64,000 bases of DNA, from contig OZ245002.1 in NCBI GenBank assembly GCA_965223415.1, positions 992,001-1,056,000 of the forward strand. Direction: 5' to 3'. Position numbers and translations under genes: made by a program. This document shows, piece by piece, positions 4,854-15,832 of the stretch. Source of the stretch: Myxococcota bacterium (lineage in GTDB: Bacteria; Myxococcota_A; UBA9160; UBA6930). Below the pieces are notes generated by a model. The model saw only the letters and a list, made by a program, of their open reading frames with translations, searched no databases and was not told where the DNA came from. How positions within the stretch are numbered: the first letter of the stretch is position 1; each line of letters begins with the position of its first letter.

Positions 4854-5112
4854 GCCGCTTCGCTCCTCCCAGGTTGATCGCGCCTGCAACCGGGGCCCGC
4901 GTCGCCGGCTCCGCGCCCGGGCCGGGCCGGGCGGAAGAAAACCGCAGGCAGGCACGATGCCCGCCGTGGGCGCTGGTCGCCGCCGGCCGAAGGCCGGAGA
5001 CGGCGACCCGTCCATGCGGCTCACGACGCGGGCTTCGCGTCCCGGCCGAGCCATGGAGCCCGGCCCGGGTCGGGAGCCGGCGACTCGATGCGGGCGGAGA
5101 GAGCGAAGCGGC
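4854..5112 (-). ncRNA. Candidate large structured RNA or MITE-like element filling a convergent intergenic region
   Basis: Three nested perfect 12-bp helices (4854-4865/5101-5112, 4901-4912/5073-5084, 4916-4927/5058-5069), several internal hairpins and a 10-nt long-range complementarity. Strand is tentative. Confidence 0.55.
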
Positions 5113-5113
5113 C

Positions 5114-6253
5114 TCAGTTCGGGAGCTGGGGGTCCTGCTGGAGGAGGGCGGCCTGGGCCATGAGCTCGCGGAACTTGCTGCGCTCGATGCGTTCCTCGAA
5201 GCCCGCGCGGCGGAGGCGGTGGAAGTACTCCTCCACCTGCTTGATCTGGAGGAGGCCGACGATCTCGACGCCCTTCTGGATCTGCTCGGGCTTCGTGCCC
5301 TTGCCCGCCAGGACGATCATGGCCTCGAAGAGGGAAGAGTCGAACTGGCTGAGGGTGAGGTTCTCGGCCTCATCGAGAGCCAGGTGGAGCTGCTCGCGGC
5401 GCTCGGGGCTGTGGTCGACGATCCACTTCAGGTGCTGCAGGCCGTAGGAGACGTGCCGCGCCTCGTCCTGCATGACGAGCTGGAACATCTTCTTGTCCAC
5501 CGGCGTCGGCGAGATGAACTCGCTGAAGCGGAAGAGGGTGAGGATGTTTCCCTCGGCCAGCAGGTGCATGAAGGCGCTGGCCTCGCTGTAGGTGTCGCCA
5601 TCCAGGATGGCCTTGAGGGAGTGCTCGACCTGGGGCAGGGCCTCCATCAGGCCCACACCGCCGGCCAGCGCGCGCTTGCGGAAGACCTCCGCATGGCGCG
5701 CCTCGTCGATGGCCTGGGTGGCAATGAAGTGCTTCACCTCGTGGAACTGGTTGTTCATGCGCCACAGCCACTTGGCCGGCAGGTCCGTGGCGATCATCTC
5801 CACCTCGGTGAAGAAGGTGCAGAGCTGGGCGAAGGCGATCTCCACCTCCTGGGAGCGCTCGCAGTCGGGCAACTCGTGCCAGGGCACGTCGGTGGTGGCG
5901 TCCCACTGGCGACTCATCGCCTCTTCCGTGAAGGAGGCCACCTTGTAGGCCCAGACGTCGCTCTTGCGGTTCAGCTCGGGGCCGAGATCGGCCTGGCCCG
6001 CCACGTCGTAGGCGGCGCCCCGCGGCGCGGCACCCCGGGGCCCGCGCGGAATCTCCGGAAGATCGTCGAAGCCGTAGCTGCCCCGGTTCAGATCCAGGTA
6101 GGTAAGCCCACGGCGATGGTTCTCCGCGTTCACCTCGACCTGCTCGGTGCCGGCCTGCATCCAGGCGAGGTCGAGGTTGCCCTTGCGGATGTCCTTCATG
6201 CGCTGGACGAAGTCGCCGTTCTCGACGTAGTCGGTGGGGCCGTAGTAGCTCAT
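5114..6253 (-). CDS. Ferritin-like diiron-carboxylate protein (ligand-complete)
   Basis: FFTEVEMIA, IDEARHAE, HLLAEG, QDEARHVSYG: E...ExxH...E...ExxH pattern. Confidence 0.85.
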   Translation of the reverse strand: MSYYGPTDYVENGDFVQRMKDIRKGNLDLAWMQAGTEQVEVNAENHRRGLTYLDLNRGSYGFDDLPEIPRGPRGAAPRGAAYDVAGQADLGPELNRKSDVWAYKVASFTEEAMSRQWDATTDVPWHELPDCERSQEVEIAFAQLCTFFTEVEMIATDLPAKWLWRMNNQFHEVKHFIATQAIDEARHAEVFRKRALAGGVGLMEALPQVEHSLKAILDGDTYSEASAFMHLLAEGNILTLFRFSEFISPTPVDKKMFQLVMQDEARHVSYGLQHLKWIVDHSPERREQLHLALDEAENLTLSQFDSSLFEAMIVLAGKGTKPEQIQKGVEIVGLLQIKQVEEYFHRLRRAGFEERIERSKFRELMAQAALLQQDPQLPN

Positions 6254-6262
6254 GAATGGTCC

Positions 6263-7345
6263 TCAGTCCTGGAGCAGGGCCAGGAATTGCGAGATGGGGC
6301 TGCGCCCGCGGCGATCGCCGAGGCCGGCGGCCTCGCAGCGGCGGGCGTACTCCTCGAAGCAGCGGGCGTAGAGGTCGGCCACCGGCCCGAGCCCGTCGCT
6401 CAGCACGATCAGCGGCTCGATCACTTCGCGAGCGCCGAGGGCGCCGACCATTCCGTTCTCCATCAGGTCGAGGTGGCCGTTCAGCGCATCCCGCTCGGCA
6501 GGGCGCGAGGCCACCAACGAGCGAACGTGGTCCACGCCGTAGGCGATGAAGCGCGTCGCGTCCTGCATGAGACGCGCGCCGAGGAAGGTGTCCGCCTCGT
6601 TGCGCGACGCCCACTCCCAGTGGCGGCCGAGGCCCTGCACGAAGGAGAAGAGCATCAGGTTCATCGAGGCCGAGGCGCAGGGGTAGGTGCCGGACTCGAT
6701 CACCATCTTGAGCAGGTCGCCCAGCTCGGCGGAATCGCGGCCCAGGTGCCCGGCACCGTAGAGGGCGCGCTTGCGAAAGGCCTCGGCGATGCGCGCGGCG
6801 TCGATCATCTGCAGGCACATCAGGTACTTGATCTCGTGGAACTCCTGGTTCATCAGGAACTCCCAACGCGCCGGGAGGTCGCAGGTGACCAGACCGATCG
6901 AGACCAGGTCGGTGGCGAGCTGGCGCAGCGCCGCGTCCTGCTCCGCGCCGAGCTCGGCCCCGTCGAGGGCCTCCCAGGGCACGTCGCGGGCCGGCCGCCA
7001 GTGCCGGGTCTTGCCCTCCTCGTAGATCCGGGTCGCCGCGTCCGCCCACAGCTCGCTCTTGCGGTTCAGGCGGTAGCCCAGCGAGGGAAGGTTCGCGGGC
7101 AGAATGGCGCCGCGGGGTGCCATCGAGAAGTTGTGGCGGACGATTTCCGGCAGGTGCTCGGGGCCGTAGCTGCCCTTGTTGATGTCGTCGAGGGTGAGGC
7201 CGCGCTTGGGCTCGGCGGCCCGCGCCTCGATCCGCTCGCGGATGCTGTCCATCCAGTCGAGCTTGAGATCGCCGGAGAGGGTGCGCCCCAGCATCTCCAT
7301 CAGCTCGGGATCCAGAGAGAAGTCCTTCGGTGCGATGTAGGCCAT
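6263..7345 (-). CDS. Ferritin-like protein paralogue lacking the iron ligands
   Basis: Starts MAYIAPKDFS at ATG 7345; collinear with 5114-6253, but the motifs read IDAARIAE and QDATRFIAYG. Confidence 0.82.
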   Translation of the reverse strand: MAYIAPKDFSLDPELMEMLGRTLSGDLKLDWMDSIRERIEARAAEPKRGLTLDDINKGSYGPEHLPEIVRHNFSMAPRGAILPANLPSLGYRLNRKSELWADAATRIYEEGKTRHWRPARDVPWEALDGAELGAEQDAALRQLATDLVSIGLVTCDLPARWEFLMNQEFHEIKYLMCLQMIDAARIAEAFRKRALYGAGHLGRDSAELGDLLKMVIESGTYPCASASMNLMLFSFVQGLGRHWEWASRNEADTFLGARLMQDATRFIAYGVDHVRSLVASRPAERDALNGHLDLMENGMVGALGAREVIEPLIVLSDGLGPVADLYARCFEEYARRCEAAGLGDRRGRSPISQFLALLQD

Positions 7346-7353
7346 GACGAGCC

Positions 7354-7776
7354 TCAGCCGACGGCCACGTCGAGGTGACGCGCCTGGTCGAAGAACTCCT
7401 GGATCGTGGCCATGAAGCGATAGAAGCAGTCGTGGCCCTCGGCGTCCTCGTACTCGACGCTGATCACGTCGCCCACGTGGGAGAGCGTGTTCAGGGTGTG
7501 GGCGGCGTCGGCGCCGCCGTTGTCCAGGATCGAACGGACCATCTCCTTCCAGGTATCGACCGGCGCGGCAAGCACGAAGTCGAGCGCCGCGGCGTCGCCG
7601 CCCTCCGCCACCTCCACGCACTCGTAGACCTCGAAGCGGATGCGCGTGAGCTCGTCGCCGATGCGCACGCCGAAGGTCGTGTCGCAGGTGCCGAGCTTCT
7701 CGAAGGTGACCGGATCCTCGGTCGTCCGCTTCTGCAGGGCTTCGAAGAACTCGAGAGAGGGGAAGGGAATGGCCAC
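7354..7776 (-). CDS. SCP2 (sterol carrier)-like small protein
   Basis: GTG start after GAGGAGG; FPSLEFFEAL...DFVLAAPVDTWKEMV resembles SCP2-like folds. Confidence 0.65.
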   Translation of the reverse strand: MAIPFPSLEFFEALQKRTTEDPVTFEKLGTCDTTFGVRIGDELTRIRFEVYECVEVAEGGDAAALDFVLAAPVDTWKEMVRSILDNGGADAAHTLNTLSHVGDVISVEYEDAEGHDCFYRFMATIQEFFDQARHLDVAVG

Positions 7777-7804
7777 GGCGGGTCCTCCTCGAGCGCCTTG
7801 AGGT

Positions 7805-7820
7805 CGCAAGAGGCGTGCCG
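7805..7820 (-). promoter_or_regulatory. Sigma-54 (-24/-12) promoter for the SCP2/ferritin-like operon
   Basis: Minus strand CGGCACGCCTCTTGCG matches TGGCACG-N4-TTGC, about 30 nt upstream of the start codon. Confidence 0.6.
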
Positions 7821-7966: not shown

Positions 7967-9385
7967 ATGCAGGCAGAGGTGCATCCCGAGGCGGCCGAGC
8001 CGGTCCATCCGATCCCGGAGCCGGGACGGCTGCGGGAGCTGATCCGCCGCTATGGTGGCCCCGGGCCCCGCTACACGAGCTATCCGACCGCGCCGGAGTG
8101 GTCCGACGGCTTCGGCGCGGCCGACTTCGCCGGCGCTCTGGCCACCTGCGGTGCGCGCACGCTCTCCCTCTACGTGCACGTCCCCTTCTGCGAGCGGCTG
8201 TGCTCGTTCTGCGCCTGCAACCGCATCATCACCCAGGACCATTCGGTCGGCGGCCCGTTCCTCGACCGCATCGAGCGCGAGATGGACCTCGCTTCCGGGA
8301 AGCTGGGCGCCGGCCGGGCGCAGGTGCAGCTCGCCGTGGGTGGCGGCAGCCCGAACTTCCTCCGCACCGAGGAGCTCGAGCGATTGGCCCGGATCGTCGA
8401 CGAGCGCTTCCCTCCGGCCGCGAACGCGGAGCGCAGTATCGAGCTCGACCCACGCCGCGCCGAGGACGAGCAGGTCGAGCTGCTGCTGGCGCGCGGGTTC
8501 AACCGTTTGAGCTTCGGCGTGCAGGACCTCGACCCCGGGGTCCAGCAGGCGATCAACCGCCACTCCCGACCCGAGCGACTCGCCGCCCTGGTCGGGCTGG
8601 CTCGCGCCCGCGGGGTCGACAGCATCAACTTCGACCTGATCTACGGGCTGCCGGAGCAGACGGTCGCGTCCTTCCGGCGAACCCTGGACCAGGTGCTGGA
8701 GCTGCGGCCCGACCGCATCGCCCTCTACGGCTACGCCCACGTCACCTGGATCTCGAAGGCGCAACGCAGCTTCGAGAAGAAGGACCTCCCGACGCCGGAG
8801 CAGCGCCTGGCCATCTTCCAGACGGCGATCGAGAAGCTGTGCGGCGCGGGCTACCGCTACCTCGGGATGGACCACTTCGCCCTGCCCACCGATGCCCTCG
8901 CCGCGGCTTCGCGGGAAGGTCGGCTCACCCGCAACTTCATGGGCTACACCGTGGCCGCGGGCAAGGCACTGCTCGCCTTCGGCCCGAGTGCGATCTCCGA
9001 GCTGGATGGGGTCTACGCCCAGTCCGAGAAGGATCCGGAGGTCTGGGCTTCGCAGGTGGACGCCGGGCACTTCGCCACCACCCGCGGCGTGCTGCTCAGC
9101 CCGGACGACCTGGAGCGACGCTGGCTGATCCGCGCGCTGCTCTGCGACGGTCGCGTTCCGGACAAGGCGTTCTTCGAGACCTTCGGCGAGGCGCTGCGCG
9201 ATCGAATCCCGGACCTGGACGTCGAGCTCGAGCCCTTCGTCCGGGACGGCATGATGGTGCCCGACGGCACCGGCTACCGGGTCACCGACGGCGGCTGGCT
9301 CTTCCTTCGCCCGATGGCGATGACCTTCGACGCCTATCTGAAGAACGGTGGGACGGCGCCGCGGCGCTATTCCTCCACCGTGTGA
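7967..9385 (+). CDS. hemN: Oxygen-independent coproporphyrinogen III oxidase (radical SAM)
   Basis: GPRYTSYPTA, YVHVPFCERLCSFCAC, GMDHFALP, RNFMGY; GGAGG RBS. Confidence 0.93.
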   Translation: MQAEVHPEAAEPVHPIPEPGRLRELIRRYGGPGPRYTSYPTAPEWSDGFGAADFAGALATCGARTLSLYVHVPFCERLCSFCACNRIITQDHSVGGPFLDRIEREMDLASGKLGAGRAQVQLAVGGGSPNFLRTEELERLARIVDERFPPAANAERSIELDPRRAEDEQVELLLARGFNRLSFGVQDLDPGVQQAINRHSRPERLAALVGLARARGVDSINFDLIYGLPEQTVASFRRTLDQVLELRPDRIALYGYAHVTWISKAQRSFEKKDLPTPEQRLAIFQTAIEKLCGAGYRYLGMDHFALPTDALAAASREGRLTRNFMGYTVAAGKALLAFGPSAISELDGVYAQSEKDPEVWASQVDAGHFATTRGVLLSPDDLERRWLIRALLCDGRVPDKAFFETFGEALRDRIPDLDVELEPFVRDGMMVPDGTGYRVTDGGWLFLRPMAMTFDAYLKNGGTAPRRYSSTV

Positions 9386-10737: not shown

Positions 10738-12150
10738 ATGCCCGTCAGCTACGAAGAGTGGATGAGCGACGGCGACGCGCTCATGTGGAACATCGAGCGC
10801 GATCCCGTGCTGCGCTCGACGGTCACCAGCGTCTGGATCCTCGACCGCATGCCGGACCTCGAGCGCTTCGAGGCCACCTTCGATCGGGCCCTCCACAAGA
10901 TCCCCCGGCTGCGCCAGCGGGTGGTCGCCGACGGCCTGGGGGTCGCGACGCCGCGCTGGGAGGACGACCCGCTCTTCGACCGCAGCTTCCACGTGCGGCG
11001 CCTCCGCGCGCCCGGGGAGGGGGACCTCCGCGATCTGCTCGACCTGGCGGCCCCGCTGGCGGGCCAGGCCTTCGACAAGGACCGGCCGCTCTGGGAGTTC
11101 CACCTGGTCGACGGCCTGGAGAGCGGCCGCGCCGGCGTGATCCTGCGCCTGCACCATGCGATCTCCGACGGCGTCGGCATGGTGCGCATGACCAACACCC
11201 TGATCGAGCGCTCCCGCGAACCGAAGCCCGGCCGCGAGCTGCCCCGGACCGTCGCCGACGACCGGGAGCCCGCGCCCTGCGCGCGCTCGGGCGAGATGGA
11301 GCACCTGGCCTCGGCGGTGCAGCAGCGGGTCATGAACGCCACCGAGCGCGGTCGCCGCGTGGGAAGCGCCCTCGGCCGCGGGCTGCTGGAAGCCGTGAGG
11401 GATCCGGCCGGCGCCGCCCAGAAGCTGGCGGACACGGCGGGCTCGGTGGGCCGGCTGGTGAAGCCCGCCAACGAGCCCCTCTCACCGATCTGGAGGGAAC
11501 GCTCCTTCTCGGTGCACCTGGACGCGCTGCTCGTCTCCTTCGACGCCCTTCGGGCCGCCGCCAAGACCGTGGACGGCACCCTGAACGACGCCTTCGTCGC
11601 GGCCGTCGCCGGGGGCCTGCGCCTCTATCACGAGGGGCACGGAAGGTCGGCGAAAGAGCTGCGCATGAACATGCCGATCAACATCCGCGACGGCGAGGAG
11701 CGGGACCGGGCGGGCAACCAGTTCGTCCCGGCCCGCTTCGCGGTGCCGGTCGGCATCGAGGATCCGAAGCGGCGCATGAGGGCCATCCGCGAGCTCGTCC
11801 GCGCCCAGCGCTCGGAACCCGCCCTGCCCCTGATGGACGAGGTCTCGGGCGCGATCAACCGGCTGGGCGTTGTGGCGGCCACCTCCGTCGTGAGCGGGAT
11901 GATGAAGTCGGTGGACTTCGTGACCAGCAACGTGCCCGGGCCGCCCTTCCCGGTCTACATGGGCGGGGCGCGGATCGAGCAGATGTTCCCCTTCGGTCCG
12001 CTGGCAGGCGCCGCTGTGAACGTGACCCTCTTCAGCTACGACGGCCAGCTCCAGCTCGGCATCAACTCGGACCGCCTCGCCGTGCCCGACCCGGACCGCC
12101 TGCTGGACTGCATCGAGGCCGGGATCGACGAAGTCACCTCCGTCTCCTGA
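10738..12150 (+). CDS. Wax ester synthase/diacylglycerol acyltransferase (WS/DGAT)
   Basis: HHAISDG catalytic motif, RPLWE, SNVPGP. Confidence 0.93.
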   Translation: MPVSYEEWMSDGDALMWNIERDPVLRSTVTSVWILDRMPDLERFEATFDRALHKIPRLRQRVVADGLGVATPRWEDDPLFDRSFHVRRLRAPGEGDLRDLLDLAAPLAGQAFDKDRPLWEFHLVDGLESGRAGVILRLHHAISDGVGMVRMTNTLIERSREPKPGRELPRTVADDREPAPCARSGEMEHLASAVQQRVMNATERGRRVGSALGRGLLEAVRDPAGAAQKLADTAGSVGRLVKPANEPLSPIWRERSFSVHLDALLVSFDALRAAAKTVDGTLNDAFVAAVAGGLRLYHEGHGRSAKELRMNMPINIRDGEERDRAGNQFVPARFAVPVGIEDPKRRMRAIRELVRAQRSEPALPLMDEVSGAINRLGVVAATSVVSGMMKSVDFVTSNVPGPPFPVYMGGARIEQMFPFGPLAGAAVNVTLFSYDGQLQLGINSDRLAVPDPDRLLDCIEAGIDEVTSVS

Positions 12151-14242: not shown

Positions 14243-15832
14243 TCAGCCCAGTGCGAAGCCCTCGTAGCCCTTCGCCACCACCTCTTCGCACTTCTCGACG
14301 TAGGGCGGGAAGCCCAGGTAGGGCATGAAGACCCGCGGCTTGCCGGGCACGTTCGCTCCCAGGTACCAGGAGTTGCAGCTCGGGAAGAGCGTCTCCCCCG
14401 CCACCTCGTTGACGTGGGCGACCCAGGCGTCCTCGGCCTCGACGGTCGCCTCGATGCAGGCGGCCTCACCCTGCCGCACCCACGCGATGCAGTCGGCGAT
14501 CCACTCCACGTGCTGCTCGATGGATGGGATCATGTTCGAGAGCACCGAGGGGCTTCCGGGACCGGTGATGGTGAAGAGGTTCGGGAAGCCGGCCGTCGCG
14601 AGCCCCAGGTAGGTGCGCGGGCCTTCGGCCCACTTCTCCCGGAGCGTGCACCCCGCCCGGCCGCGGATGTCGACCTTGAGGAGCGCGCCGGTCATCGCGT
14701 CGAAGCCGGTGGCGAAGACGATGGCGTCGAGCTCGAATTCGGCGTCCGCGGTCCGCAGGCCGGTCGGCGTGATCTCGCGGATCGGCACCTCCAGCACGTC
14801 GACCAGGCTGACGTTCGGCCGGTTGAAGGTGGCGTAGTAGTCGGTGTCGACGCAGAGCCGTTTACAGGCCACGACCGTGTCCGGCGTCAGCTTCGCCGCG
14901 ATCTCCGGATCGCGCACGATGCTCTCGATCTTGCCACGCAGGAACCGGGCGGCGGTGTCGTTCGCCTCCTTGTTGCTGAGGAGGTCGTCGAAAACGCCCA
15001 TGAAGGGCAGGCCTCCGTGCTCCCAGCGCGCCTCGTACTCCCGCTGCCGCTCCTCGGGCGTCACGGCCAGGGCCGAGGTTTCGTTCGGCGCCGTGTCCAG
15101 GCCGAAGGGCATCTGTTTCGCCCGGGCCCGCAGGCCCGCGTAGTCGGCCTTCACCCGCTGCTGGGTCTCCGCCTCCAGCTTCTGGTTGTGGGCGGGAACG
15201 GACCAGTTCGGGGTCCGCTGGAAGACGTAGAGGTGCTCCGCCTGCTGGGCGAGGATCGGGATCGACTGGATGCCCGAGGAGCCCGTTCCGATCACGCCGA
15301 CCCGCTGTCCGGTGAAGTCGACGCCTTCGTGGGGCCACTGGCCCGTGTGGTAGACGGGGCCGCGGAAGGAATCCCGCCCCGGGAACTCCGGCGTGTTCAC
15401 CGACGAGAGACAGCCGGTCGCGAAGACGACGAAGCGTGCCGTCGCGTCGCCGCGATCGGTGCCGACCCTCCAGCGCCCGGCCGCCTCGCCGAAGTGGGCG
15501 GCCTCGACCCGGGTCTCGAGCTGGACGTCGGCCCGGAGATCGAAGCGATCGGCGACGTGCTCGATGTAGCGCAGGATTTCGGGCTGCGTGGCATAGCGTT
15601 CGGTCCACTCCCACTCCTGCTGGAGATCCTCGTCGAACTGGTAGGAGTACTCCATGCTCTCGACGTCGCAGCGCGCACCGGGGTAGCGGTTCCAGAACCA
15701 GGTGCCGCCCACGCCGCTGCCAGCCTCGAACACCCGCACCGAGAGACCCTGCTGCCGCAGCCGATGGAGCATGTAGAGGCCGCCGAGGCCAGCGCCCACC
15801 ACGATCGCGTCGTACTCCGGCCCCTCCGCCAT
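14243..15832 (-). CDS. Type I Baeyer-Villiger monooxygenase
   Basis: GAGLGG, GGTWFWNRYPGARCD, BVMO fingerprint FRGPVYHTGQWP, GTGSSGIQ. Confidence 0.95.
   Translation of the reverse strand: MAEGPEYDAIVVGAGLGGLYMLHRLRQQGLSVRVFEAGSGVGGTWFWNRYPGARCDVESMEYSYQFDEDLQQEWEWTERYATQPEILRYIEHVADRFDLRADVQLETRVEAAHFGEAAGRWRVGTDRGDATARFVVFATGCLSSVNTPEFPGRDSFRGPVYHTGQWPHEGVDFTGQRVGVIGTGSSGIQSIPILAQQAEHLYVFQRTPNWSVPAHNQKLEAETQQRVKADYAGLRARAKQMPFGLDTAPNETSALAVTPEERQREYEARWEHGGLPFMGVFDDLLSNKEANDTAARFLRGKIESIVRDPEIAAKLTPDTVVACKRLCVDTDYYATFNRPNVSLVDVLEVPIREITPTGLRTADAEFELDAIVFATGFDAMTGALLKVDIRGRAGCTLREKWAEGPRTYLGLATAGFPNLFTITGPGSPSVLSNMIPSIEQHVEWIADCIAWVRQGEAACIEATVEAEDAWVAHVNEVAGETLFPSCNSWYLGANVPGKPRVFMPYLGFPPYVEKCEEVVAKGYEGFALG

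Follow-up and report, generated by a model that had tools for sequence, protein, structure and literature searches.

A conserved gene trio of uncultured bacteria pairs a ferritin-like dimetal-carboxylate protein with a ligand-less twin and a predicted SCP2-fold subunit

We analyzed a 64-kb window (64,000 nucleotides, ~70% G+C; positions 992,001 to 1,056,000 of contig OZ245002.1, GenBank assembly GCA_965223415.1, from a Myxococcota bacterium) and concentrated on a three-gene operon that encodes, in order of transcription, a small protein (S), a ferritin-like paralogue devoid of metal ligands (B), and a ligand-complete dimetal-carboxylate protein (A; Table 1). An earlier reading of this DNA (the original prediction) had proposed three closely packed genes on the minus strand, and the frames open exactly where it had placed them, with intergenic gaps of 8 and 9 bases. 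A longer frame, starting from an ATG at 7968, was ruled out as the S gene. The S homologues are 137–186 aa long, mostly ~140 aa (120 listed), and those that were aligned begin at the same residues. Because both the lengths and the aligned starts agree with the GTG, and not with the upstream ATG, we take position 7776 to be the start of S.

Table 1. Coordinates of the operon, its flanking elements, and other genes of the window
Feature	Coordinates	Strand	Remarks
S (P0003), small protein, 140 aa	7776-7354	minus	open reading frame, GTG start
B (P0002), ligand-less ferritin-like paralogue, 360 aa	7345-6263	minus	open reading frame
A (P0001), ligand-complete dimetal-carboxylate protein, 379 aa	6253-5114	minus	open reading frame
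Shine-Dalgarno-like GAGGAGGA ahead of the S GTG	7790-7783	minus	direct sequence reading
Sigma-54-like -24/-12 element GGCACGCCTCTTGC, GGCACG-N4-TTGC	7819-7806	minus	30 bases ahead of the S start codon
Terminator-like hairpin with T-rich tail, weak	4944-4964	minus	~150 bases past the last stop codon
HemN-like radical-SAM gene	7970-9385	plus	divergent from the operon across a common intergenic region of ~190 bases, in which the sigma-54-like element lies
WS/DGAT wax-ester/triacylglycerol synthase	10738-12150	plus	within 3-8 kb of the operon
Baeyer-Villiger-type flavin monooxygenase (BVMO)	14243-15832	minus	within 3-8 kb of the operon
Molybdopterin-type oxidoreductase N-terminus, CxxCxxxC motif	1-1185	minus	translation
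HxlR regulator	814-1296	plus	left end of the window
Zn-type alcohol dehydrogenase/quinone reductase	1286-2290	minus	left end of the window
vWA-domain protein, 677 aa	2348-4381	plus	left end of the window

The six ligands of A are E152, the pair E184-x2-H187, E234, and the pair E264-x2-H267, which lie in the motifs TEVE, DEARH, LAEG, and DEARH, respectively. Family members of 300 aa or longer, drawn from 160 loci and from the window, number 243; 148 possess the full EEHEEH set and 95 do not. The 160 loci include metagenome loci; the 80 genome loci all come from metagenome-assembled genomes (MAGs) labelled Myxococcota, Deltaproteobacteria, Binatia, or a few others. All six ligands are invariant in the 148 complete-type relatives. 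The ligand contributed by the first helix is E152; the nearby E150 varies to Gln or Thr. A second set of residues is likewise invariant in all 148 (W117, W125, Q180, D183, R186, F191, K193, R194, F241, D263, and R266), and W101 is also among the conserved tryptophans of the protein. H230, which lies one helical turn ahead of E234, is present in 138 of the 148.

No Pfam or NCBIfam family matched A above its cut-off. The sub-threshold Pfam scores were 20 bits for DUF455 (cut-off 34), 17.1 bits for AurF (cut-off 29.6), and 16 bits for RNR-R2 (cut-off 34), and the best NCBIfam match was to the R2lox model NF006200 (30.2 bits, with a cut-off of 194), followed by NF006202 and NF006198 at ~13 bits. 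A sequence search of the PDB returned marginal matches only, to R2lox and to VlmB, and the short match to VlmB spans the first ExxH. A tblastn search of a plasmid collection with A gave two partial matches, both weak and uninformative, whilst in its own genome A finds eight further distant ferritin-like matches.

The predicted structure was more revealing. The AlphaFold2 model of A (pLDDT 90.0, built with 34 sequences) has a ferritin-like dimetal-carboxylate fold, and we compared it with 48,161 representative chains using VIA, with which Foldseek agrees. The best match was a VlmB homologue from Kitasatospora (6d9f; Z 23.6, root-mean-square deviation (rmsd) 2.9, 259 residues, 19% identity). It was followed by R2lox (4hr0_A; Z 21.3, rmsd 3.1, 256 residues), RNR R2 (Z 21.1, the R2 proteins as a group scoring Z 20–21), cyanobacterial ADO (Z 20.8), and the α- and β-subunits of MMOH (Z 20.4 for α; Z 20.2 over 326 residues for β, but with an rmsd of 7.9). 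The ten best-ranked matches span Z 19.9–23.6, and the Foldseek top 50 contains many R2lox chains and VlmB itself (8wvr). The original prediction had named PaaA/C, BoxB, AurF, and acyl-ACP desaturase for comparison. As nearest folds of A these seem less likely: at Z 14–16 they fall under the ten best matches (PaaAC 3pvr_B, Z 15.5 over 199 residues; stearoyl-ACP desaturase 1oq4, Z 14.9, and DesA2, Z 14.3; BoxB, Z 14.8; CmlI 5hyh, Z 14.5; AurF 2jcd, Z 14.4), and rank below VlmB, R2lox, R2, and ADO (Z 21–24). The (D/E)ExRH form of the A motifs is one that we take to be shared with the acyl-ACP desaturases; the Pfam desaturase family gave no hit for A.

B is a paralogue of A, as had been predicted; the two proteins share 35% identity across 367 columns (E 1e-68), all of the shared motifs quoted in the original prediction are present in the translations, and both possess a conserved N-terminal extension of ~120 residues. 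No Pfam or NCBIfam family matched B. The alignment also agrees with the claim that A keeps every ligand and B has lost every one, since the six ligand columns of B hold G, A, I, F, A, and F (motifs SIG, DAARI, MLFS, and DATRF). The same split recurs at every two-paralogue locus, where one copy is complete and the other incomplete. Some Binatia copies of B retain the first half-site (E..ExxH), but none retains the second, so that the full ligand set is never found in orthologues of this gene. Nor is there neutral decay. B has 50 invariant columns across 26 sequences and retains D183, R194, D263, R266, and three tryptophans that are likewise invariant in A. The ratios of non-synonymous to synonymous substitution (dN/dS by NG86, and rough at the G+C of the window) were 0.11–0.41 for B (8 pairs), as compared with 0.05–0.26 for A and 0.10–0.46 for S. 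We conclude that all three genes are under purifying selection and that B is not decaying. In four Binatia-type loci (L069, L077, L084, and L086) the dead paralogue lies 2.1–2.8 kb from the enzyme gene, with an amidase-family gene in between in L077 and L086.

The original prediction had described S as SCP2-like, and this was borne out by the predicted fold and not by family profiles. The AlphaFold2 model of S (pLDDT 95.2, built with 38 sequences) found the Thermus thermophilus SCP2 protein TT1886 (2cx7) as its best Foldseek match (TM 0.66/0.71), and in the VIA search 2cx7_B aligned over 119 of 130 residues (Z 13.2, rmsd 2.4), with all ten best matches being SCP2-fold proteins. The modelled fold of S is thus SCP2. 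In contrast, Pfam SCP2 (PF02036) did not match S at E up to 1, NCBIfam returned no family, the sole Pfam match (HEAT_Maestro, E 0.14) is at chance level, and a sequence search of the PDB with S found nothing relevant. S therefore shares a predicted fold with SCP2 proteins such as 2cx7 and the SCP2 domain of UbiJ, but differs from them in having its own motif, D111..D116..R120..Q126, in the C-terminal helix, and in always being encoded beside a dimetal enzyme. UbiJ is a precedent for an SCP2 domain in the service of hydroxylases that act on a greasy substrate.

All 275 S homologues that we found are unnamed. Among 44 diverse relatives, G29, R120, and Q126 never vary, W76 is conserved in 98%, and D111 and D116 in >90%; the most conserved residues cluster in the C-terminal helix. 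A cysteine-based metal or redox site was considered and rejected, as C31 and C53 are invariant in close relatives only and not over the 44 diverse ones. A search for S fused within longer proteins found none (E up to 0.001), a negative that carries little weight. One metagenome clade (L090, L091, L092, and L094) has two S-like genes in tandem, and not one, after the genes for the enzyme and its dead twin. N-terminal fusions do occur on distant members of the enzyme family: a SnoaL_2 domain on P0376 (29 bits, cut-off 27), and a TusA-like domain on P0276 (30.5 bits, cut-off 28.6) and on P0271 (26.5 bits, below the cut-off). Separate branches of the family may take up small accessory domains of different kinds.

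The relatives of A are numerous. At least 1,230 clusters at 90% identity were found among 7,999 candidates scored, and an exhaustive search of 50%-identity representatives gave 842 clusters with E-values of 0.001 or lower, and 95 when the limit was set to 1e-30. The best 120 homologues are 79–92% identical to A, and their names say no more than “hypothetical” or “ferritin-like domain-containing”. Ten distant representatives sit in clusters of 1–66 members, in which the organism-named members are MAGs of uncultured Acidimicrobiia, Actinomycetota, and Dehalococcoidia/Chloroflexota; all of the organism-labelled records of the family that we saw are uncultured MAGs. All three genes adjoin one another at 69 of the 80 genome loci; of the remaining 11, 7 are truncated where the contig ends. 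The linkage proposed in the original prediction is therefore real, but the order itself is not fixed. Three permutations were found: S-B-A, as in the window (type I; 30 genome loci, A 74–87% identical), S-A-B (type II; 37 loci, A 53–61% identical), and A-B-S (type III; 2 loci, A 33–34% identical). Five genomes contain both S-B-A and S-A-B types. In a sample of the phylum, S was present in 24 of 301 genomes, all of them in the window's own class and with up to three copies each, from which we conclude that the module is accessory and multi-copy, and not housekeeping. The enzyme gene matches as two overlapping pieces in different frames at L041 (8001–9048) and L086 (8001–9085), which are likely to be MAG frameshifts or assembly errors.

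To look beyond the genome loci, metagenome contigs were scanned with a profile of distant members, and genes at the 30 loci with enough flanking DNA were mapped with purpose-built hidden Markov models. The commonest arrangement was an enzyme gene and an S gene with no second paralogue (16 of 30). Enzyme and dead paralogue occurred at 5 loci, S-enzyme-dead paralogue at 4, enzyme-dead paralogue-S at 2, enzyme-dead paralogue-S-S at 1, and the enzyme alone at 2. The S gene adjoins the enzyme gene at 23 of the 30. Because the enzyme-S arrangement is the most common, we consider the pair to be the core association and the dead twin to be a later addition.

That addition was made more than once. In a FastTree phylogeny of all 243 rows, the dead paralogues split into two distinct clades, both with good support. 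We then chose 67 rows (24 dead, 43 complete) to cover these clades and analyzed them by an IQ-TREE quick search (LG+C20 PMSF). Each dead clade again sits with a complete clade of its own, and two changes or more are required by the starred branches. Constraining all dead rows to one clade cost 56 log-likelihood units, and a single origin of the dead paralogue was rejected by the approximately unbiased (AU) test (p-AU 0.0012), in a test for which the rows had been picked after the first tree and in which some dead rows are long-branched. The ligand-less twin thus arose at least twice independently. In the Myxococcota/Binatia group, the subtree of A is mirrored by that of B, a pattern that fits joint inheritance of the two genes ever since one duplication there.

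We found no characterized enzyme to which the trio maps: family scores stay below threshold, source names are uninformative, and full-text searches of an open-access library turned up no description of it. The trio is a real and conserved gene set that appears to belong with the dimetal-carboxylate oxygenases and to be distinct from those described.

What the trio does can be approached through its neighbors. Among the 80 genome loci, those that recur include SDR proteins (14 loci), enoyl-CoA hydratase (8), acyl-CoA ligase (6), two types of thiolase (4 each), CoA-transferase III (3), KstD-like flavoprotein (3), and canonical SCP2 (3), together with GFO/IDH/MocA oxidoreductases (10, directly downstream of the module in Binatia), TetR regulators (11, directly upstream in type II Myxococcota loci), and AraC regulators (4). 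Acyl-CoA dehydrogenases, 4HBT thioesterase, P450, luciferase-like monooxygenases, and PQQ and Zn alcohol dehydrogenases were also found, and a limonene-epoxide-hydrolase-like gene follows the module in two Binatia loci. The recurrent neighbors are lipid or acyl-CoA enzymes. The sole hint of an electron donor is a 2[4Fe-4S] ferredoxin gene, which directly follows S at L129, L133, L153, and L160 and lies just upstream of the module at L065 and L070 (Binatia).

The closest folds of A belong to O2-activating dimetal enzymes that act on alkyl, lipid-like, or small organic substrates. With these folds, the invariant ligand set of A, the modelled fold of S, the linkage of the genes, the selection on B, the ferredoxin genes, and the lipid or acyl-CoA neighbors in mind, we lean, by a modest balance of the evidence, towards the view that A, B, and S together form an O2-activating oxidase or oxygenase, which would likely hydroxylate or desaturate some hydrophobic compound (an alkyl chain, a lipid, or an acyl thioester, for example). 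In such an enzyme, A would bind a diiron or Mn/Fe center, take electrons from a general ferredoxin, and activate O2. B would stand in for the second protomer of an ancestral homodimer, as a scaffold or docking surface, and S would bind the greasy substrate or product and pass it to A, or would cap or gate A's channel. An alkyl or lipid compound, possibly in the form of its CoA thioester, would be hydroxylated or desaturated in the reaction, and transcription would start from the sigma-54-like promoter under the control of a distant activator. A wider proposal, which we put forward tentatively and with rather more doubt than belief, is that the trio represents an undescribed and widespread class of O2-activating dimetal enzymes, in which an obligate SCP2-fold subunit feeds alkanes, alicyclic, or acyl lipids to an R2lox-like subunit, and in which a homodimer has turned into a dead-twin heterodimer at least twice.

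Of the described systems, R2lox resembles A both in fold and in its six-residue E/ExxH/E/ExxH site. However, A scores far below the NCBIfam cut-off for R2lox, and the residues that cross-link in R2lox are not kept: as mapped by spacing from the ligands, without superposition, their positions are occupied by Ala155 (146 of 148) and Leu/Met229 (145 of 148). In GkR2loxI the ether cross-link joins V72 and Y162 (PMC10867098). The trio differs further in that its operon adds a ligand-less paralogue and a dedicated, divergent SCP2-fold subunit, and in the N-terminal extension of A and B. R2lox is reported to co-purify with long-chain fatty acids, and haloarchaeal R2lox to be encoded beside ferredoxin and sterol-carrier genes (PMC9314684). 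GkR2loxI has been reported as an alkane hydroxylase, on the basis of crude lysates only and with weak effects (PMC10867098), and BioE illustrates that ferritin-like diiron enzymes can act on acyl-CoA or acyl-ACP (PMC12704756). As printed precedents for an oxygenase of this kind, these are weak.

Several observations weigh against the oxygenase proposal. The case is made entirely from sequence, predicted folds, and gene context. The best fold match of A, VlmB, is a natural-product azoxy synthase and not a lipid enzyme, and at L032, a type I locus, the orthologue of A carries Ala instead of E184. The most conserved residues of S are polar (D111, D116, R120, and Q126) and would suit a docking motif no less than a lipid pocket; S may thus act as an effector and not as a carrier. 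As the original prediction had stated, no reductase, ferredoxin, paa, or box gene adjoins the operon, and the window as a whole contains no reductase or ferredoxin gene; across all loci, ferredoxin adjacency was seen in only 6 of 160. Outside the trio, no neighbor is conserved across clades in either the genome or the metagenome loci. The cupin, HemN-like, and amidohydrolase neighbors in the window say little on function, and a WS/DGAT gene is found near the module in the window and at only 5 of the 80 genome loci. On assembly, complex prediction for A, B, and S, with S scored, gave values of 0.78, 0.78, and 0.53, with partner-replaced controls at 0.00 and 0.00 but a chain-1-replaced control at 0.88, and speaks neither for nor against binding.

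Other explanations were considered. PaaABC consists of a catalytic diiron subunit (PaaA), a metal-free paralogue (PaaC), and a small protein (PaaB), and the trio could be an epoxidase or hydroxylase of the same kind, with A, B, and S corresponding to PaaA, PaaC, and PaaB, and an acyl-CoA or aryl-CoA thioester, not a free lipid, as its substrate. The parallel with PaaA/PaaC, which was already drawn in the original prediction, holds as an analogy of architecture, and it gains from the CoA-metabolism genes near some trio loci (CoA-transferase III, enoyl-CoA hydratase, acyl-CoA ligase, thiolases, acyl-CoA dehydrogenases, and 4HBT thioesterase) and from the limonene-epoxide-hydrolase-like gene at the two Binatia loci. 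As a statement of nearest kinship it is less likely to hold. Neither A nor B matches the PaaA_PaaC family of Pfam at E up to 1, PaaAC and BoxB trail the leading folds of A (Z 15.5 and 14.8, as compared with 21–24), B arose by duplication inside A's own family, the predicted fold of S is SCP2 and not that of PaaB, and the window contains no PaaE-type reductase and no paa or box gene. We therefore regard a PaaABC-like thioester epoxidase or hydroxylase as unlikely. The soluble diiron monooxygenases offer a similar analogy, in that their active α- and ligand-less β-subunits share one fold and both subunits of MMOH are among the better matches of A. However, the proteins of the trio are much smaller and have no match to Phenol_Hydrox (PF02332), and the window has no reductase, coupling protein, or γ-subunit.

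It is also conceivable, and in our judgment quite unlikely, that the trio is no substrate oxygenase at all, but a lipid-binding, Fe/Mn-handling, or peroxide- or O2-scavenging ferritin-like complex, in the manner of R2lox as originally described, which modifies only itself. The function of R2lox, which is among the nearest solved relatives, is itself unsettled (PMC9314684); there is no dedicated reductase in the window, and the ancestry of the family is ferritin-like. Set against this are the strong conservation of A, both in identity among its best 120 homologues and in dN/dS, and the loss of the R2lox cross-link residues. A dedicated SCP2 partner, and a ferredoxin beside some relatives, would also suit a turnover enzyme better.

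The high rank of VlmB raises the further question of whether A might be an N-oxygenase, or an azoxy- or N-N bond-forming enzyme, of secondary metabolism (VlmB-, AurF-, or CmlI-like). Both VlmB entries (6d9f by VIA, 8wvr by Foldseek) favor this, as does the weak AurF match in Pfam and an AurF-family gene near the module at L065. That match, however, lies under the cut-off, and the AurF and CmlI structures themselves reach only Z 14.4–14.5. VlmB acts in valanimycin-type natural-product biosynthesis, and such a gene context is not seen at the trio loci; across the 160 loci, polyketide synthase, non-ribosomal peptide synthetase, and amine-forming genes are not recurrent. The PDB entry titles of 8wvr and 6d9f mention no dead paralogue and no SCP2 partner. 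The partner of A has a lipid-carrier fold, and the module reaches three copies per genome; multiple copies are frequent among catabolic oxygenases. We consider an N-oxygenase very unlikely. That A produces a radical or oxidant for some other catalytic protein, in the way that RNR R2 does for R1, is highly improbable in spite of the R2 proteins being among the best folds of A and of the D-E-x-x-H motif and the conserved W101, W117, and W125, which presumably recall the R2 electron-transfer path, since the module has no R1-like or other conserved large partner gene beside it and Phe191, which we place by spacing at the radical-Tyr site of class Ia R2, is invariant in all 148 complete members, four residues past H187.

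Dimetal-carboxylate oxygenases carry out difficult C-H oxidations; what their R2lox branch does physiologically is disputed. If the wider proposal made above for A, B, and S is correct, the operon would supply the set of partners (a carrier, a scaffold, and in some relatives a ferredoxin) that has been missing from the question of R2lox function. The trio is a defined, expressible three-protein set with which to search for a substrate, a natural experiment on the repeated evolution of half-dead heterodimers, and a candidate marker of hydrophobic-carbon oxidation in uncultured marine and soil bacteria. New here are the enzyme-S core arrangement, the two or more origins of the dead twin, the adjacency of ferredoxin and activator genes, and the dN/dS values.

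In the window, the operon is neighbored by genes for a cupin, the HemN-like radical-SAM protein, amidohydrolases, and WS/DGAT. We dropped a functional link between the operon and WS/DGAT, given how rarely the two are found together. Links to the HemN-like, cupin, and amidohydrolase genes were likewise rejected as unconserved, the first being seen at 1 of the 80 genome loci (L062, weakly) and the others at none. A BVMO gene lies near the module at 3 of the 80.

The original prediction had also placed a sigma-54-like promoter ahead of the operon, and a candidate element is present there. It has the GG (-24) and GC (-12) elements, correctly spaced, is close to the TGGCACG-N4-TTGC consensus, and is the single match to GGCACG-N4-TTGC in the 64 kb, where 0.15 are expected; 13 of 100 shuffles contained at least one match. 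The motif, in the form YGGCAYG-N4-TTGC, recurs 60–64 bases upstream of the S gene in 4 of the 30 type I loci (L010, L025, L027, and L028) and in none of the 41 type II/III loci. The terminator-like hairpin downstream is not above chance (1 site found, with 1.1 expected from shuffles). The window contains no gene for a sigma-54 enhancer-binding protein, whilst the genome as a whole has 30 matches to PF00158, ~22 of them strong. At two other loci, L159 and L161, a sigma-54 activator gene follows the module.

The same genome contains a second, unrelated-looking cluster (L005, G000:C1:5519405-5523061), with open reading frames at 312–1427, 1429–2214, and 2057–2926. Two of these are adjoining and ferritin-like, one of which has MiaE_2, Phenol_Hydrox, and Ald_deCOase matches, and they are followed by an open reading frame with a hemerythrin domain.

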